Source: a virus (lineage: Duplodnaviria; Heunggongvirae; Uroviricota; Caudoviricetes). Taken from it: a stretch of DNA of 33,905 bases. The notes under the pieces are model-generated. The model had not been told where the DNA came from. It ran no database searches and saw only the letters and a program-made list of their open reading frames with translations. The translations under genes were made by a program, and so were the position numbers. Location of the stretch: IMG/VR virus record IMGVR_UViG_2541047807_000007. One strand, 5' to 3'. This document shows, in pieces, positions 7,962 through 28,493 of this stretch; the stretch's first letter is position 1, and every line of letters starts with the position of its first letter.

Positions 7962-9263
7962 ATGGAAAATATAAAGATTGATAAGTTTCTCACTATTCAA
8001 AAAGTTGATATTCCTCTTAAGAAAGTGAATATATTTATTGGGCCTCAGGCACAGGGGAAAAGTGTCATTGCAAAGCTAATAAAATATTTTAAAGATTATC
8101 CTATGGATATACTACGAGCTTCAACAGAGGGTAAAACTAAAAGAGATATATTGAAGGAGCAAAAGAATAAGTTTAGTAAAATTTTCCCTCAGCAGTATTG
8201 GGCTGATGATGAGTTTTTTATTGAGTATAGTAATAAGCACTATTGGGTGCGGATTACTAATCGAAAAAATAGCAAAGGGTCATTGAAAATAGACCTTTCT
8301 GAGAATTTAACGAAGACGATTGCTAAACTTCGTTTGATTGTACGAAAGGATTTAGATGAAAATATTGAGAATTCACTTGCAGAAAGCGTTACGAGAAGAC
8401 GTAAACGCGGAATTGAACATGAATTGCGAGTATGTCTTTCTCTAGGATTGTTTTCAGAACCAGAAACAAAGCTTGAAAGTGTTTTTTATATCCCCGCAGG
8501 GCGCTCTTTTTTTGCTAATTTGCAAAAAAATGTGTTTTCATTTTTATCCAGTAGTATAGAAATTGACTACTTTTTGACAGAGTTTGGTTCTCTGTATGAA
8601 CAAACAAAAAAATTATTTAACCAAGATTACATGATTAGGATGCTTAGGGGGGCTGTGCCTCAACATGTTAATAAACTTGTGGAGGAGTTGATTTGCGGAA
8701 AATATATAACAGAAAAGGGTGAGGATTTTATTCGTCATGCTGCTAAGAAGACGAATCTTAACAACTCGAGCTCAGGGCAGCAAGAAGCGTTACCAATGGC
8801 TTTAATGTTATCCTCATGGCCGTATTTACAGTCTGTGACTAGTAAGAGTTTTATTATTGAGGAGCCGGAGGCTCATCTGTTTCCTTCTGCCCAAGCAAAA
8901 GTTGTATCTTTAATAGCCTCAGCGTATAACCAAGCAGAAAGCTATTGTAGCTATACAATAACAACACATAGTCCATATATTCTAAGTGCCTTCAATAATT
9001 TGATTCAAGCAGGTAATGCATTAAAGTGTATTAAGGGCAAGAATAATACCGATATCGAACGCTTATATAAGCTTGTTCCAGAGTCTCAAATTATTGATTT
9101 TGATGATGTGACAGCTTATATGGTTAATGCTGGGAAAGTGACGGAAATACTGGATTCCGAACTAAATATATTAGATGCGAATGAAATAGATAGGATTTCC
9201 TCTATTTTTTCAGAGACTTTTGATGCATTGATTGATATCGAATATTCGGCTACTGTGAATTAG
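7962..9263 (+). CDS. OLD-like / AAA_21-type ABC ATPase (433 aa), no fused nuclease domain; cargo
   Basis: Walker A GPQAQGKS near the N-terminus, Q-loop-like YIPAGR, ABC signature-like SSGQQ, Walker B FIIEEPEAHLFP, H-loop TTHSP; SD AAGGAG; very AT-rich. Confidence 0.8.
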   Translation: MENIKIDKFLTIQKVDIPLKKVNIFIGPQAQGKSVIAKLIKYFKDYPMDILRASTEGKTKRDILKEQKNKFSKIFPQQYWADDEFFIEYSNKHYWVRITNRKNSKGSLKIDLSENLTKTIAKLRLIVRKDLDENIENSLAESVTRRRKRGIEHELRVCLSLGLFSEPETKLESVFYIPAGRSFFANLQKNVFSFLSSSIEIDYFLTEFGSLYEQTKKLFNQDYMIRMLRGAVPQHVNKLVEELICGKYITEKGEDFIRHAAKKTNLNNSSSGQQEALPMALMLSSWPYLQSVTSKSFIIEEPEAHLFPSAQAKVVSLIASAYNQAESYCSYTITTHSPYILSAFNNLIQAGNALKCIKGKNNTDIERLYKLVPESQIIDFDDVTAYMVNAGKVTEILDSELNILDANEIDRISSIFSETFDALIDIEYSATVN

Positions 9264-9271
9264 GTGATTGA

Positions 9272-9709
9272 ATGTGTAAAAATTGCAAAGGAAAAACAAA
9301 AAATAAAATCATTGTGCTATCTGATAAAGGAACATCAACGCAATTGTCAGTCACAAATGATAATGAGTTGGAAGTTGAGCATAAGTTAATAGATGGTTGC
9401 GCTATTGTTGTTGGAGAGCGGTGTGATCATTATTTGAAGATTTATAACAATCAGGATGTTTCACATCTTTTTGTTGAACTTAAAGGAAGTGATGTTGAAA
9501 AAGCTGTTAAACAGATAGTGACAACTTTAAAGTCAGGTGTGATTAATGTAGGTGCTAAAGAAAAAAAACATGGTGCTATTGTTAGCACTAGGAATCCGCT
9601 AAACTCAACAGAAACCAATAGGTTAAAGAAGAAAATTCTTTTGAGTGACGGAGTGAATTTGCATTTCTATAAAATGAAGGCGCAGCAAAAAATAACTTCT
9701 TTTACATGA
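9272..9709 (+). CDS. Hypothetical 145-aa Cys-containing partner of the ATPase (candidate effector)
   Basis: Starts 8 nt after the ATPase stop with SD AGGTGA; N-terminal CxxC (MCKNCKGK), C43/C51-DH, VELKGSD and LLSDG acidic motifs; same AT-rich composition as the ATPase. Confidence 0.65.
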   Translation: MCKNCKGKTKNKIIVLSDKGTSTQLSVTNDNELEVEHKLIDGCAIVVGERCDHYLKIYNNQDVSHLFVELKGSDVEKAVKQIVTTLKSGVINVGAKEKKHGAIVSTRNPLNSTETNRLKKKILLSDGVNLHFYKMKAQQKITSFT

Positions 9710-19049: not shown

Positions 19050-19835
19050 TTATGAATGATTTTTATTTGATGCTTTGTATTCTAAAACCTTCTTATTGGC
19101 GTAAAAGAATTTTGTATATGACAGGAATATAACCAGACCTGAAGTGAAATAGACGAGGGATAGTATTAATAATGCTTTTTTGTGACTGTTATTATCTTTA
19201 ATCTCCTGGCTTAACCATTCGGAGTCCTCCTCGTTTAGCTGTAAGAGCTTATTGCAGGCGATTTCAGGAAGTGTGTCTTTTATAAATACGTTTTGCAGTC
19301 TCTTGCAATCGGCAAGGCTATAAGTTTTATTAAATTCAACTGCTTTATTTTTGAAGGATAAAAGAACTTTGTCACTATAAACATAGTACATCATATTTTT
19401 ATATGGTATGCCTATGGCATCTCTTACTATAGCGGATTGTTTGTTGTGTATATAACATGCGAAGAGAATATAAATAATACTGGCCAGAATTACAATTATT
19501 GTTTTAATTATGTGTGGTGGTTTTGTTATGTCACCCCAGAAGCGAGTAAGGAAAAAATACGATGTTTTTAGTTTTCCATCAATCAGCCCCTGCTGTATCA
19601 TTCTCACATCTTCGATGCCTGATACATTGATTCCGTTAATTATTTTAAATAGTTGAATGTCGCGCCATTTTTTGTCGAGCATTTTTAACTTTCTGTCTGA
19701 ATACTCAAGATTGAAATGATGTGCAATAAACCTCATAAGATTACTTTTACCAAAGGTAACAAATGTTAATGCTATTAATAAAAATAGATACAAAGAGATA
19801 AACCACCACGCATTAGTCACATTATCACTGAACAT
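19050..19835 (-). CDS. Cargo integral membrane protein (261 aa, about 3 TM helices), AT-rich, antisense to the late operon
   Basis: SD GAGGAG before the ATG; hydrophobic segments near residues 10-30, 118-140 and 233-253; codon composition unlike the backbone. Confidence 0.7.
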   Translation of the reverse strand: MFSDNVTNAWWFISLYLFLLIALTFVTFGKSNLMRFIAHHFNLEYSDRKLKMLDKKWRDIQLFKIINGINVSGIEDVRMIQQGLIDGKLKTSYFFLTRFWGDITKPPHIIKTIIVILASIIYILFACYIHNKQSAIVRDAIGIPYKNMMYYVYSDKVLLSFKNKAVEFNKTYSLADCKRLQNVFIKDTLPEIACNKLLQLNEEDSEWLSQEIKDNNSHKKALLILSLVYFTSGLVIFLSYTKFFYANKKVLEYKASNKNHS

Positions 19836-24597: not shown

Positions 24598-25125
24598 ATG
24601 CAGCATTTAAAAAATATTACGGCGGGTAATCCAAAAACGGTTGAACAATATCAATTGACAAAGGACTTTGATGTTGTCTGGTTTTTTTCAGAAGATGGTA
24701 AGAACTGGTACGAAGAACAAAAGTATTTTGCTGATGACACGATAAAAATAGCGTACGACAAAGATAATATCATCCGCTATGTGGAAAAGGATGTGACAGC
24801 TATCAGACCGGATGGATTAAGTGTTGTTGAAGTGGCGGATATTACTGCTAACCGACGGGCGGACATTTCAGGGAACTGGATGTTTAAGGACGGCAAAGTG
24901 ATTAAACGCATTTATACGGCAGAGGAATTACAGCAGCAGGCAGAAATTCAGAAAGCCAGACTTCTTGCAGATGCTGAATCCGTGATTTTGCCGCTGGAGC
25001 GCGCGGTCAGACTGAACATGGCAACAGATGAGGAGCGCACACGGCTGGAGGCTTGGGAACGTTACAGCGTTGTGGTCAGTCGTGTGGATCCTACAAATCC
25101 TGAATGGCCGGAAATGCCGCAATAA
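24598..25125 (+). CDS. G: Tail fibre assembly chaperone gpG (175 aa)
   Basis: Length and position of P2 gpG, immediately after H. Confidence 0.85.
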
Positions 25126-25158
25126 GTTGTATGAGCTCTGGTGGGAGCTTACATATCT

Positions 25159-25202
25159 ATGGCACAGAGTAAAGCCTAATCTGACAGTCCGCTCTGTGCC
25201 AT
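25159..25202. other. 11-bp perfect inverted repeat ATGGCACAGAG-N22-CTCTGTGCCAT downstream of G
   Basis: Seen in sequence 34 bp after the G stop; no flanking T-tract; possible end of the late operon or a protein-binding site. Confidence 0.35.
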
Positions 25203-25318
25203 TACCGGACATACTGAGCAGAAGGCTAAAAAGGACGCTTTCAGGACATATAGCAAGGGAGCAAGGATGAAAGAATTAACCCAGTATATTTAATGTTTCA
25301 ATCATGATAGTTTCTGAA

Positions 25319-25347
25319 TTAAAGGGGGGGGTACCCACCCCCTTTAA
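25319..25347. terminator. G/C-rich hairpin (TTAAAGGGGGGGG-TAC-CCACCCCCTTTAA) immediately after the stop of the minus-strand 92-aa gene
   Basis: Near-perfect inverted repeat abutting the stop codon, with AT-rich flanks on both strands. Confidence 0.55.
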
Positions 25348-25626
25348 TTACTTGTTCCACTCAGTCAGAATTTGGTTACTAACTTCATCTGAGAGATTGT
25401 ACCAATAAGCTGAGTTATTGGTTGCATCTACAACAATAAGCTTATCATCACTATCCATGACCGCCCTCACAATTTTGGCTGCATCCTCGGCAGAGTAACT
25501 ACAGTTAACATACCAGTTCGATTCAGTTGTTAAAGCCCAATTTCCTAAAGATTTAATTGCATCATACACAGCCGCATAATCTTTCGTTTTAATGAGGTCG
25601 TAAGTAATAAATAAATTATTAGCCAT
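25348..25626 (-). CDS. Hypothetical 92-aa protein (cargo), downstream of the DUF3606-like gene
   Basis: SD GGGAG before the ATG; aromatic-rich small globular-looking protein; AT-rich; no family I can name. Confidence 0.6.
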   Translation of the reverse strand: MANNLFITYDLIKTKDYAAVYDAIKSLGNWALTTESNWYVNCSYSAEDAAKIVRAVMDSDDKLIVVDATNNSAYWYNLSDEVSNQILTEWNK

Positions 25627-25645
25627 AAATCATCTCCCAAAGGAC

Positions 25646-25672
25646 AAAGAAAAAAGCGCCTAGAAAGGCGCT
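25646..25672 (-). terminator. Intrinsic terminator (AGCGCC-TTTCTA-GGCGCT + T6) between the DUF3606-like gene and the 92-aa gene
   Basis: On the minus strand a GC stem is followed directly by TTTTTTCTTT; lies between two co-oriented genes, suggesting attenuation or independent expression. Confidence 0.6.
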
Positions 25673-25678
25673 CATATA

Positions 25679-25858
25679 TTAATGGTCTTTAAGCCATGCC
25701 TGTACTTTCTTAGCCGAATGACCTACAGCCTGTACGGCTTGAACAAGTTTGGCCTCGCTAACTCCAAACTTTTCAGCCCAATCACGTCTCTCGTAATCCT
25801 GTTTGATACTTATTAAATCATTGTCAGGGGTACCGATTTTGGTCTTATCATCAGCCAT
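25679..25858 (-). CDS. DUF3606-like small protein (59 aa from internal ATG; track ORF extends to 25897)
   Basis: Motif W.EKFGVSEAKL..AV.AVG.S...V..WL is typical of the DUF3606 family as I recall it; SD GAGGA before the internal Met. Confidence 0.55.
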   Translation of the reverse strand: MADDKTKIGTPDNDLISIKQDYERRDWAEKFGVSEAKLVQAVQAVGHSAKKVQAWLKDH

Positions 25859-26349
25859 TTTACTGATTCCTCGTGATACAGGCTTATACCTGCCCATTAG
25901 TTATATGGCTCCCGTGCTGCTTCGTAAACGTTCAATAATCAAACAATTGACACTGATCATAAAACCAGTTAGAGGATTTGACTCTAGCTTGGATATATGA
26001 TGATGCCACCCCCTTTATATTGTTGTCGGTAACTCACAGACATTGAACTCATGCTGGTGAGTGAAAGGCTACATAAACGCCCAACATTTAAACTGCCCTC
26101 AGCAGTGTTCGCGGAGCAATATACAGGCTTCGTATTCAATCCTTGCCCTACGAGAAACCCTAGCCGTTGCCTCGTTTTCAAGTGTCAGGAAGTTCTTTGT
26201 CAGACCTCATACAGTCTTGGGCTGGGTGAGGTGCATGGGGGAAGTTGAAGCCTTAACTGTTGAGGTAAATCGAACTATAAGTGTGCAATTTTTCAAGCTC
26301 GGCGCTATTTTAGTATTGAAAACAATTAGTACGCCCCCAAGGACAACTC

Positions 26350-27042
26350 ATGATCGAATTTATCGCAGAGCATATAAACACAGTAAGTACACTTATCTCC
26401 GCTTTGGCAGCATTGCTAACAGCAGTTGCTACATTTTTCTTGTGGAGAGTAACAAGGCTATTAGCAGACGAGACAAAAAGGATGGTTGACGCATCAGTTC
26501 AACCTCATGTCGTTGTGACTCTTGAACCAAATTCTTGGGCTGCTTTTTATTTTGATATCAATATTGCTAATACCGGAAATGCCCCAGCCTATGATATTGA
26601 AGTCGGATTTAATCCCCCACTGGTTAATGCAGAACATAGAAAAAATAAAGGTATACCATTTAGCAAGGTTAGCGTATTGAAAAACGGCCATTCCCTCAAC
26701 AGCAGTCTTTGTAAGTATGACCAGATTAAAGATCAAGTTTATTCTGTTAGTATTAGCTGGTCTAAACAGCCGGGCTCAACTGAAAGAGAGCGGAATGAGT
26801 ATTCTTATGATATGGCTTCTTTCGAGGGGGTTAGCTACTTAGGTGCAAGGAGTCCAATGACACAGATAGCTGAGCAGATGAAAAAGATTAGAGAAGACTG
26901 GAGGCCGATTTCCCAGGGAAGCAAAAAAATTAAAACAGACAACTATAATTCAAGTGACAGAGCCGAGGAACAACGAGCACGTGAAGAGTGGTATCAGACC
27001 ACTGCAAAGAAATGGGATAAAGAAAAGCAAAAAGATAACTAA
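26350..27042 (+). CDS. Cargo membrane-anchored protein (230 aa): N-terminal TM helix, central domain, highly charged K/E-rich C-terminal tail
   Basis: SD AAGGA; hydrophobic segment at residues 12-32 followed by RVTRLL (positive-inside); occupies the P2 Z/fun position between G and FI. Confidence 0.7.
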   Translation: MIEFIAEHINTVSTLISALAALLTAVATFFLWRVTRLLADETKRMVDASVQPHVVVTLEPNSWAAFYFDINIANTGNAPAYDIEVGFNPPLVNAEHRKNKGIPFSKVSVLKNGHSLNSSLCKYDQIKDQVYSVSISWSKQPGSTERERNEYSYDMASFEGVSYLGARSPMTQIAEQMKKIREDWRPISQGSKKIKTDNYNSSDRAEEQRAREEWYQTTAKKWDKEKQKDN

Positions 27043-27209
27043 TACAATTGACCTGCTCCCCATAAATTAGCATACCACAATCTCAGGTCCGCTCTTCGCT
27101 CAAAACAGGCTGTCAGATTTGACAGAATTTTGGTTACGTAATTTGTCAGTTGGAAACAGAGAGAGTACAAATCAAGGCAGGCAAGCTGATTGCCCGCCTT
27201 TTCTTTATC

Positions 27210-27230
27210 TGTTGTTTCATCCACTGACCA
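27210..27230. promoter_or_regulatory. Candidate Ogr-dependent late promoter element (TGTTGT-N12-CCA) upstream of FI
   Basis: Motif shared with the P/O and V upstream regions; centred about 80 bp before the FI ATG, compatible with a -55 activator site. Confidence 0.35.
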
Positions 27231-27302
27231 GCCAGGTCAAATAGCGTCTCATGCACTGCCCAACAGAAAATAGTTGCACCCATTAACCACGGAGTTAAAC
27301 GG

Positions 27303-28493
27303 ATGAGTGACTATCATCATGGCGTGCAGGTGCTGGAGATTAACGACGGCACCCGCGTCATTTCCACCGTATCCACGGCCATTGTCGGCATGGTCTGCAC
27401 GGCCAGCGATGCGGATGCGGAAACCTTCCCCCTCAATAAACCTGTGCTGATTACCAATGTGCAGAGCGCAATTGCAAAGGCCGGTAAAAAAGGCACGCTG
27501 GCGGCATCGTTGCAGGCCATCGCTGACCAGTCAAAACCGGTCACCGTTGTCGTGCGCGTGGAAGACGGCACCGGTGATGACGAGGAAACGAAACTCGCGC
27601 AGACCGTTTCCAATATCATCGGCACCACCGACGAAAACGGTCAGTACACCGGACTAAAAGCCCTGCTGGCGGCGGAGTCGGTAACCGGTGTTAAACCGCG
27701 TATTCTCGGTGTGCCGGGACTGGATACCAAAGAGGTGGCTGTTGCACTGGCATCCGTCTGTCAGAAGCTGCGCGCTTTCGGATATATCAGCGCATGGGGC
27801 TGTAAAACCATTTCCGAGGTGAAAGCTTACCGCCAGAATTTCAGCCAGCGTGAGCTGATGGTCATCTGGCCGGATTTCCTCGCATGGGATACGGTCACCA
27901 GTACCACCGCCACCGCGTATGCCACCGCCCGTGCGCTGGGTCTGCGCGCTAAAATCGACCAGGAGCAGGGCTGGCATAAAACGCTGTCCAATGTCGGGGT
28001 GAACGGTGTTACCGGCATCAGCGCCTCTGTATTCTGGGATTTGCAGGAGTCCGGCACCGATGCTGACCTGCTTAACGACTCAGGCGTTACTACGCTGATT
28101 CGCCGCGACGGTTTCCGCTTCTGGGGTAACCGTACCTGCTCTGATGACCCGCTGTTCCTCTTTGAAAACTACACCCGCACCGCGCAGGTGCTGGCCGACA
28201 CGATGGCTGAGGCGCACATGTGGGCGGTGGACAAGCCCATCACCGCAACGCTGATTCGCGACATCGTTGACGGCATCAATGCCAAATTCCGTGAGCTGAA
28301 AACAAACGGCTATATCGTGGATGCGACCTGCTGGTTCAGCGAAGAATCCAACGATGCGGAAACCCTTAAGGCCGGAAAACTGTATATCGACTACGACTAT
28401 ACCCCGGTGCCTCCTCTTGAAAACCTGACCCTGCGCCAGCGTATTACCGATAAATACCTGGCAAATCTGGTCACCTCGGTTAACAGCAATTAA
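27303..28493 (+). CDS. FI: Contractile tail sheath protein gpFI (396 aa)
   Basis: Length and position of P2 FI. Confidence 0.9.
   Translation: MSDYHHGVQVLEINDGTRVISTVSTAIVGMVCTASDADAETFPLNKPVLITNVQSAIAKAGKKGTLAASLQAIADQSKPVTVVVRVEDGTGDDEETKLAQTVSNIIGTTDENGQYTGLKALLAAESVTGVKPRILGVPGLDTKEVAVALASVCQKLRAFGYISAWGCKTISEVKAYRQNFSQRELMVIWPDFLAWDTVTSTTATAYATARALGLRAKIDQEQGWHKTLSNVGVNGVTGISASVFWDLQESGTDADLLNDSGVTTLIRRDGFRFWGNRTCSDDPLFLFENYTRTAQVLADTMAEAHMWAVDKPITATLIRDIVDGINAKFRELKTNGYIVDATCWFSEESNDAETLKAGKLYIDYDYTPVPPLENLTLRQRITDKYLANLVTSVNSN

Follow-up and report, generated by a model that had tools for sequence, protein, structure and literature searches.

Gene content and position of ORF1

Here we describe ORF1, a 230-codon gene in a 33,905-nucleotide stretch of viral DNA (IMG/VR record IMGVR_UViG_2541047807_000007, Caudoviricetes; the whole stretch is hereafter termed the window), together with the pair of genes encoded next to it. 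An original prediction, made from the DNA letters, had described the product as a membrane-anchored protein at the Z/fun position of phage P2 and as a candidate exclusion or abortive-infection factor. The open reading frame (ORF) does run from an ATG to a stop codon exactly where it was called (Table 1), and the surrounding gene order, i.e., a Caudo_TAP tail-fibre assembly gene (24598..25125), ORF1, and a tail sheath gene (27303..28493), matches G - fun(Z) - FI of P2, placing ORF1 between G and FI as proposed. Its GC content of 40.1%, versus 50.4% for the whole window and 55-58% for the adjoining tail genes, bears out the AT-richness that had been noticed. ORF1 is thus AT-rich foreign cargo in the Z/fun slot of a P2-like prophage, a locus known as a second hotspot for defence genes in P2-like phages (PMC9519451). 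As also described, the neighbouring pair is divergent from ORF1; it consists of a DUF3606 gene and a 92-aa ORF, both encoded on the other strand, and a 491-nt control region separates it from ORF1.

Table 1. Coordinates of ORF1, its protein features, and the surrounding elements in the window
Feature	Positions	Strand	Remarks
ORF1	26350..27042	+	ATG start, 230 aa, stop included; WP_000569052.1, PHROG 11802
Ribosome-binding site AAGGA	26339..26343	+	6 nt ahead of ORF1 ATG
Leader moving with ORF1 where the DS-46 pair is absent (Kosakonia L015)	26212..26349	+	138 nt
Transmembrane helix, codons 12-32	26383..26445	+	predicted N-out, C-in
Nearly invariant helix face T24/A25-T28-L31-T35-L38/A39-T42-M45/A46, codons 24-46	26419..26487	+	from conservation
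Seven-stranded Ig-like (CARDB-like) beta-sandwich, codons 54-154	26509..26811	+	N74-T-G76-N-A motif; predicted cytoplasmic
Conserved helix, codons 169-189	26854..26916	+	P169, A174, K178, R181, E182, W184
K/E-rich terminal helix, codons 201-230	26950..27039	+	only D203, R204, E207 conserved; sequence and length otherwise vary
DUF3606 gene, first of DS-46	25679..25858	-	59 aa in RefSeq, WP_001406733.1; longest ORF to 25897
92-aa ORF, second of DS-46	25348..25626	-	WP_000002748.1, PHROG 1090
Mobile cassette (92-aa ORF, DUF3606 gene, ORF1)	25187..27102	.	1,916 bp, ends common to several settings
9-bp direct repeat GTCCGCTCT, left copy	25187..25195	+	inside left arm of imperfect inverted repeat 25178-25210
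9-bp direct repeat GTCCGCTCT, right copy	27087..27095	+	inside right inverted-repeat arm 27087-27119
Terminator-like hairpin	25324-25345		after 92-aa ORF
Terminator-like hairpin with T-runs, bidirectional	27174..27205	.	conserved P2 backbone, between ORF1 and late F-operon promoter region

RefSeq carries the ORF1 product as a hypothetical protein, and PHROG 11802, a family of unknown function, matches it from end to end (E = 3.2e-147, residues 1-230 on profile positions 1-230 of 230). In pairwise comparisons, the ratio of nonsynonymous to synonymous substitution rates (dN/dS) is 0.13 against the Kosakonia copy and 0.19 against the Pantoea copy; a further value of 0.04 against the Biostraticola copy comes from a comparison in which dS is saturated. 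A search of one database returned 234 homologues at E <= 1e-3, and an exhaustive search returned 616 representatives of 50%-identity clusters at the same threshold, 236 of them at E <= 1e-10. Since dN/dS values of 0.13-0.19 are combined with so many homologues and cluster representatives, ORF1 is more than a chance ORF; it is a real gene under purifying selection. Among 5,426 complete Escherichia coli genomes, 105 (~2%) carry it, on the chromosome in every case.

The same gene has been recorded twice before in the same slot, as ORF1 of the Z region of P2-EC53 (AJ512682, CAD54906), where it is labelled a "putative lysogenic conversion protein," and as a hypothetical protein of phage R18C (QDP43518). 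Over a 2.1-kb region the window is 97.8-98.2% identical in DNA sequence to both, and AJ512682 annotates the flanking inverted repeats. Relative to the window, the AJ512682 sequence has six single-base gaps in the DUF3606 region (L001 530..847), probably sequencing errors; the record therefore lacks the DUF3606 gene, which would explain why ORF1 is the only gene annotated there. Full-text literature searches for "P2-EC53" or WP_000569052 gave no match.

Regarding expression, the 138-nt leader that moves with ORF1 is presumed to hold its own promoter and 5' untranslated region. A -10 element marked in the old AJ512682 record maps to ~26016 of the window; the leader, which travels with the gene, is the better candidate region for a promoter. 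A strict sigma-70 consensus scan of 25100-27320 found no promoter, and an Rfam search of the whole window, including the 491-nt divergent leader region, matched no RNA family. In some alleles (relatives P0005 and P0131), a 2-nt difference just 5' of the ATG joins an upstream frame to ORF1, and gene finders call the fused frames as 268-275-aa products. In the window, the corresponding upstream frame (26061..26349) is out of phase with ORF1, and the start is the ATG at 26350 with its ribosome-binding site.

A single membrane helix followed by a predicted cytoplasmic Ig-like domain

ORF1 contains one hydrophobic segment, at residues ~12-32, where Kyte-Doolittle hydropathy over 19-mers peaks at 2.05. 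Ahead of it are 11 residues with two acidic and zero basic side chains, and R33, R36, K43, and R44 follow it, in agreement with the single N-terminal transmembrane helix and positive-inside signal of the original prediction. The same bias runs through the family: among 131 members with an identifiable helix, the mean number of Lys/Arg residues in a 15-residue stretch is 3.3 after the helix versus 0.27 before it, and the count is higher after the helix in 127 members. Four distant members additionally carry a signal-peptide-like N-terminus and an acidic, Pro-rich linker ahead of the helix. Because of this charge bias and the four extended members, the N-terminus is expected to be external and the globular part cytoplasmic; ORF1 is thus predicted to be a single-pass inner-membrane protein with ~11 N-terminal residues in the periplasm. 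A signal peptide or a periplasmic domain, considered as alternatives, are ruled out by the charge bias and by the over-long hydrophobic stretch.

An AlphaFold2 model, built from a 30-sequence alignment (mean pLDDT 81), resolves what had been described as a central domain into a seven-stranded beta-sandwich of immunoglobulin-like (Ig-like) type at residues 54-154. This is preceded by an unbroken helix at 2-49, the cytoplasmic end of which would form a stalk, and followed by helices at 169-189 and 201-229, with a low-confidence stretch at 160-166. The C-terminal tail is highly charged and rich in Lys and Glu, as the original prediction had it (the tail sequence that it quoted is correct), with 8 Lys/Arg and 8 Asp/Glu among the 31 residues 200-230. 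In the Pantoea leporis copy, a stop at codon 201 (L016 10601..10603) removes this tail, D203 and R204 included; that copy is either decaying or shows that the tail is dispensable.

Scans of the ORF1 protein with Pfam, NCBIfam, and PADLOC matched no model, and those of 101 diverse relatives (25-43% identical to ORF1) with Pfam and NCBIfam gave single chance-level matches only; weak CARDB/DUF7507 matches within the family agree with the fold class. A PHROGs scan of ORF1 matched no annotated exclusion family. Fold searches with the model return generic Ig-like sandwiches only. Foldseek found nothing in the PDB at E <= 1e-3, and its best matches there are other proteins that combine a membrane helix with an Ig domain (query TM-score <= 0.30); matches in BFVD are phage proteins that share this architecture and are uncharacterised. 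The KirBac cytoplasmic domain, TRAP beta/delta, and archaeal type IV pilins likewise pair a membrane helix with an Ig-like domain. Kinship to type IV pilins, which gave the top Foldseek match, was rejected, as the distribution of basic residues (0.27 before, 3.3 after the helix) is that of the opposite orientation to pilins, which have a positively charged leader ahead of the helix and an extracellular globular domain. A profile search of PDB sequences yielded only matches at E > 0.2, to the coiled helices of TFAM.

Across the 101 relatives, the membrane helix has one nearly invariant face: T28 is retained in 93/97 sequences, L31 in 96/97, T35 in 96/98, L38 in 95/98, and T42 in 94/97. This face begins within the inner half of the membrane helix and continues along the juxtamembrane helix, and conservation within residues 18-48 has a periodicity that peaks at 3.5-3.6 residues. 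Conserved positions of the soluble domain include N74, G76, A80, P89, L110, W137, and Y151; the membrane helix is thus no less constrained than this domain. Together, the conservation of the Thr/Ala/Leu face and its periodicity suggest a specific helix-helix interface rather than a passive anchor, which would serve either self-association or the binding of a conserved membrane partner. The Ig-like sandwich is itself a typical binding module.

A widespread family of single genes, mostly in cargo positions of mobile elements

A scan of species-representative genomes identified 54 ORF1-family loci in Alpha-, Beta-, and Gammaproteobacteria. When all genes within 10 kb of these loci were clustered, no conserved partner gene emerged; the largest neighbour clusters recur in eight loci each, and their distance from the ORF1 relative varies. 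These commonest clusters are LysR regulators and tyrosine integrases; next come ABC transporters, resolvases, and tgt-yajC-secD. ORF1 relatives are thus always single genes, and most occupy cargo positions of mobile elements. Examples include an integrase islet with insertion sequence (IS) elements in Xanthomonas, an integrative and conjugative element (ICE) with TraI/TraG in Pectobacterium, an islet with two integrases in Klebsiella, and an island with a resolvase in Yokenella.

PADLOC, applied to the three nearest neighbours in 52 loci, identified Gabija and MADS components at two loci each, as well as single cases including PDC-M04A, PD-T4-2, MzaA, and PDC-S35. In Kosakonia, the DUF3800/PDC-M04A gene lies directly downstream of the ORF1 relative. 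A second E. coli allele, ~70% identical to ORF1, occupies a P4-like satellite hotspot (L070-L072 5001..5573), where its neighbours are the P4 primase and an AbiJ_NTD4/PDC-S32 gene. The 5' end of this allele, and with it the membrane helix, has been removed by an IS3-family insertion; the shortened form is frequent in E. coli, with clusters that number 225 and 169 members.

A mobile cassette shared with the defence pair DS-46

ORF1 and the divergent pair make up a cassette of 1.9 kb whose ends recur in P2-like prophages, five lambdoid prophage contigs, the Pantoea leporis chromosome (L016 8536..10755), and two divergent P2-like contigs (L092, L093). In the lambdoid prophages it is inserted between DUF977 and DUF968/antiterminator Q genes (L085-L089 4843..6753). 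Homology of the window to other P2-like phages ends at ~25202 and restarts at 27087, and the cassette encodes no recombinase. Between the divergent genes, at window ~26124, the Pantoea-type and L092/L093 copies have an additional GC-rich stretch of 315 bp, a length divisible by three. This lengthens a minus-strand ORF to 155 aa (L016 9321..9788 (-)), of which a 65-aa remnant persists in the window (25984..26181). The 155-aa product has no significant Pfam match, and it may be either a fragment of a gene or a third gene that has been lost.

The pair itself corresponds to DS-46, a unit of WP_001406733.1 plus WP_000002748.1 in 511 nt that is listed as defensive = TRUE and was the sole protecting unit among 24 low-scoring control units (DeWeirdt et al., Science 2026, PMC13092281). 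The window encodes exactly these two proteins, and in it a terminator-like hairpin (25654-25673, minus strand) separates the DUF3606 gene from the 92-aa ORF. DS-46 shares the cassette with ORF1 as its divergent neighbour; its genes have no sequence relation to ORF1. As DS-46 was validated without ORF1, the defence activity demonstrated for this cassette belongs to DS-46 and not to ORF1.

The same study lists, among its "Predicted novel defense gene" entries, a 693-nt/230-aa protein, WP_042002648.1, located 491 nt from DS-46 in divergent orientation, with a mean log-odds of 6.99 (minimum 3.49, maximum 8.64; PMC13092281 Table S5); its cluster mate WP_032223676.1 scores 8.24 (Table S10). By its length, position, and neighbours we equate this protein with the ORF1 family, and it is probably near-identical to ORF1, which is thus an already published computational defence prediction. 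For both listed proteins the best remote (HHblits) match is drt1b, at 16% coverage and a probability of 91-92. The table of 118 cloned units does not contain the 230-aa protein (PMC13092281).

ORF1 (105) and the DS-46 pair (102) occur in nearly the same number of complete E. coli genomes. Elsewhere the two part: the pair is absent from 53 of the 54 ORF1-family genomic loci, the sole exception being one that carries the same cassette, and also from the more distant viral copies of ORF1. Kosakonia shares with the window only positions 26212..27048, i.e., ORF1 with its leader and without the pair. Because the DS-46 unit comprises two proteins and excludes ORF1, a separate divergent gene, and because the relatives, including that of Kosakonia, lack the pair, we treat ORF1 as an independent module packaged with DS-46.

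A candidate stand-alone defence protein at the inner membrane

Our tentative preference, held with somewhat less than even confidence, is that ORF1 is a stand-alone inner-membrane defence protein in which the Ig-like domain binds and the conserved helix face acts. The gene is horizontally mobile, autonomous cargo, and its product would act against phages at the inner membrane. The cytoplasmic sandwich and the helices that follow would bind a phage-derived or infection-altered component, upon which the invariant Thr/Ala/Leu face would drive helix-helix association. This would either assemble a homo-oligomer that renders the membrane leaky, resulting in abortive infection, or engage a conserved membrane partner. 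What we infer for ORF1, then, is a defence role exercised through sensing, oligomerisation, and membrane damage, and these elements differ in plausibility. That ORF1 has a defence role of any kind is modestly favoured; a membrane-effector mechanism is possible and rather doubtful. In its most far-reaching form, ORF1 would found a widespread proteobacterial family of one-protein sensor-effectors, unrelated to catalogued systems, in which the Ig-like domain recognises a phage component, the Thr-Leu stripe forms an oligomeric pore with a polar lining and so abolishes the membrane potential, and the gene shuttles between P2, P4, and lambdoid prophages, ICEs, and chromosomes. Taken as a whole, this wider scheme is unlikely.

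The points that count for defence are (i) the Z/fun slot, (ii) the DefensePredictor score, (iii) the P4 hotspot, (iv) the ICE and integrase islands, and (v) the defence-gene neighbours. The preferred reading also draws on the AT-rich composition of the gene, with its own leader and a terminator downstream, on the stand-alone occurrence of the family, on the predicted topology, on the conserved helix face and the Ig-like sandwich, on dN/dS values of 0.04-0.19, and on the success of 42 of 94 cloned high-scoring DefensePredictor units. The proposal of an exclusion or abortive-infection factor with which this work began is accordingly strengthened by the hotspot, the published prediction, and the contexts of relatives, and weakened by the assignment of the cassette's shown defence activity to DS-46. 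ORF1 represents a new protein family of a known kind, i.e., prophage hotspot cargo and a candidate for single-gene defence.

Several observations weigh against a defence role, or against the mechanism outlined above. ORF1 has no homology to characterised defence proteins (zero PADLOC matches at E <= 1), and PADLOC on the 101 relatives gave scattered single, chance-level matches only. The literature and databases searched yielded no experimental phenotype for ORF1. A sphingomonad relative is flanked by rib genes and rodA, and no mobile element is visible there; Pseudomonas relatives lie near the housekeeping genes tgt-yajC-secD. Identity between Alpha- and Gammaproteobacteria is ~45-50%, which is slow for an arms-race protein, and the counts of defence-gene neighbours stand without a matched background. 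Oligomerisation and pore formation would both have to be read from a single source, the conservation pattern. Finally, DS-46 can explain the retention of the cassette in hotspots with no contribution from ORF1.

Among known membrane-associated systems, Drt1b, which is the small membrane-bound partner in DRT type 1, shares with ORF1 an N-terminal membrane helix and a small beta-rich soluble domain. The Drt1b profile of PADLOC matched neither ORF1 at E <= 1 nor any of the 101 relatives at E <= 0.1, and a reverse transcriptase-nitrilase gene is present neither in the cassette or slot nor as a recurrent neighbour in the 54 loci. The architecture of ORF1 also presumably resembles that of Cap15-type effectors of CBASS, which combine a transmembrane part with a beta-barrel; these differ from ORF1 in having two membrane helices rather than one. 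No cyclase or other signal-producing enzyme lies next to ORF1 in the slot of the window or recurs in the 54 loci.

Alternative explanations

The strongest competing explanation, which we judge improbable but worth serious attention, is that ORF1 is a non-defence factor for lysogenic conversion or membrane homeostasis, acting on envelope stress or a host membrane complex or otherwise to the benefit of its carrier, and hitch-hiking with DS-46. It would agree with the sole curated label of the gene, that of a putative lysogenic conversion protein, with the high sequence conservation, and with the several relatives that lie among housekeeping genes where mobile-element or defence neighbours are not visible. 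The defence activity shown so far for the cassette is fully explained by DS-46, and of 94 cloned high-scoring DefensePredictor units 42 defended, whereas about half failed to do so (PMC13092281). Against this explanation, the published score is nevertheless positive, and the gene recurs in defence hotspots of two unrelated elements (P2 Z/fun and P4) and beside defence genes elsewhere, with the Kosakonia copy moving without DS-46 and adjoining a candidate defence gene.

Superinfection exclusion is less likely still. Small inner-membrane exclusion proteins are exemplified by HK97 gp15, P22 SieA, and T4 Imm. In a comparable role, ORF1 would block entry of the incoming genome from its place in the inner membrane, e.g., by occupying or altering a membrane component, and cells would survive without suicide. 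Its status as prophage cargo in a lysogenic-conversion slot suits such a role, as do its predicted single-pass topology, a conserved face within the membrane to which a protein of the host membrane could bind, and the lack of any enzymatic domain among our matches. Set against these are the predicted periplasmic exposure of only ~11 residues, with the conserved bulk of the protein in the cytoplasm, and the spread of the family over three proteobacterial classes in chromosomal and ICE contexts, a poor fit to phage-specific exclusion factors.

It is more doubtful again that ORF1 serves DS-46 as a third component, whether as a regulator or as a membrane effector or modulator. The three genes do travel as one cassette with identical ends in P2-like and lambdoid prophages and in Pantoea, they share the divergent control region, and their counts in E. 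coli genomes are nearly equal. The unit scored as defensive nonetheless consists of two genes without ORF1, the pair accompanies only one of the 54 genomic loci of ORF1 relatives (in the same cassette), and the Kosakonia and distant viral copies of ORF1 do without it.

The original prediction had left open a relation to P2 Fun(Z), which is likewise a non-essential gene in the G-FI slot, at a lysogenic-conversion/exclusion locus, and which, according to the annotation of the P2 record, prevents phage T5 from growing and renders cells sensitive to fluorodeoxyuridine (FUdR). Despite the common slot, descent of ORF1 from a Fun(Z)-like ancestor, as an orthologue or an analogue, can be set aside with near certainty on grounds of sequence, for Fun(Z) (AAD03288) is a 528-aa protein encoded on the opposite strand, the best two-sequence BLASTP alignment has E = 1.8 over 25 residues, and the two share no Pfam domain (a Pfam scan of Fun(Z) found none).

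If ORF1 does act alone as a stand-alone inner-membrane defence protein, it would represent a compact, 230-residue, enzyme-free, membrane-anchored immune family missed by current defence catalogues. The 1.9-kb cassette would then be a two-system "defence cartridge" with fixed ends, swapped between unrelated prophages, and such swapping, if true, would be relevant to the way in which hotspots are reloaded. Should ORF1 have no defence role, it would provide a useful negative for guilt-by-location and for machine-learning predictions, an instructive one because the validated DS-46 next door explains the context.

Additional cargo genes in the window

The other P2 hotspot, an AT-rich region at the old/tin position (7962..9709 (+)), encodes a 433-aa AAA_15 ATPase, which is AriA-like and matches PADLOC PDC-M29A (E = 2e-31), and a 145-aa ORF that matches PDC-M29B (E = 1.6e-4). 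Together, these two genes form a candidate two-gene defence system. A 261-aa ORF (19050..19835 (-); GC 0.34-0.37), with no Pfam or PADLOC match, breaks up the GC-rich block of late genes at a point between those for tail completion and those for the baseplate and is probably a further cargo gene.

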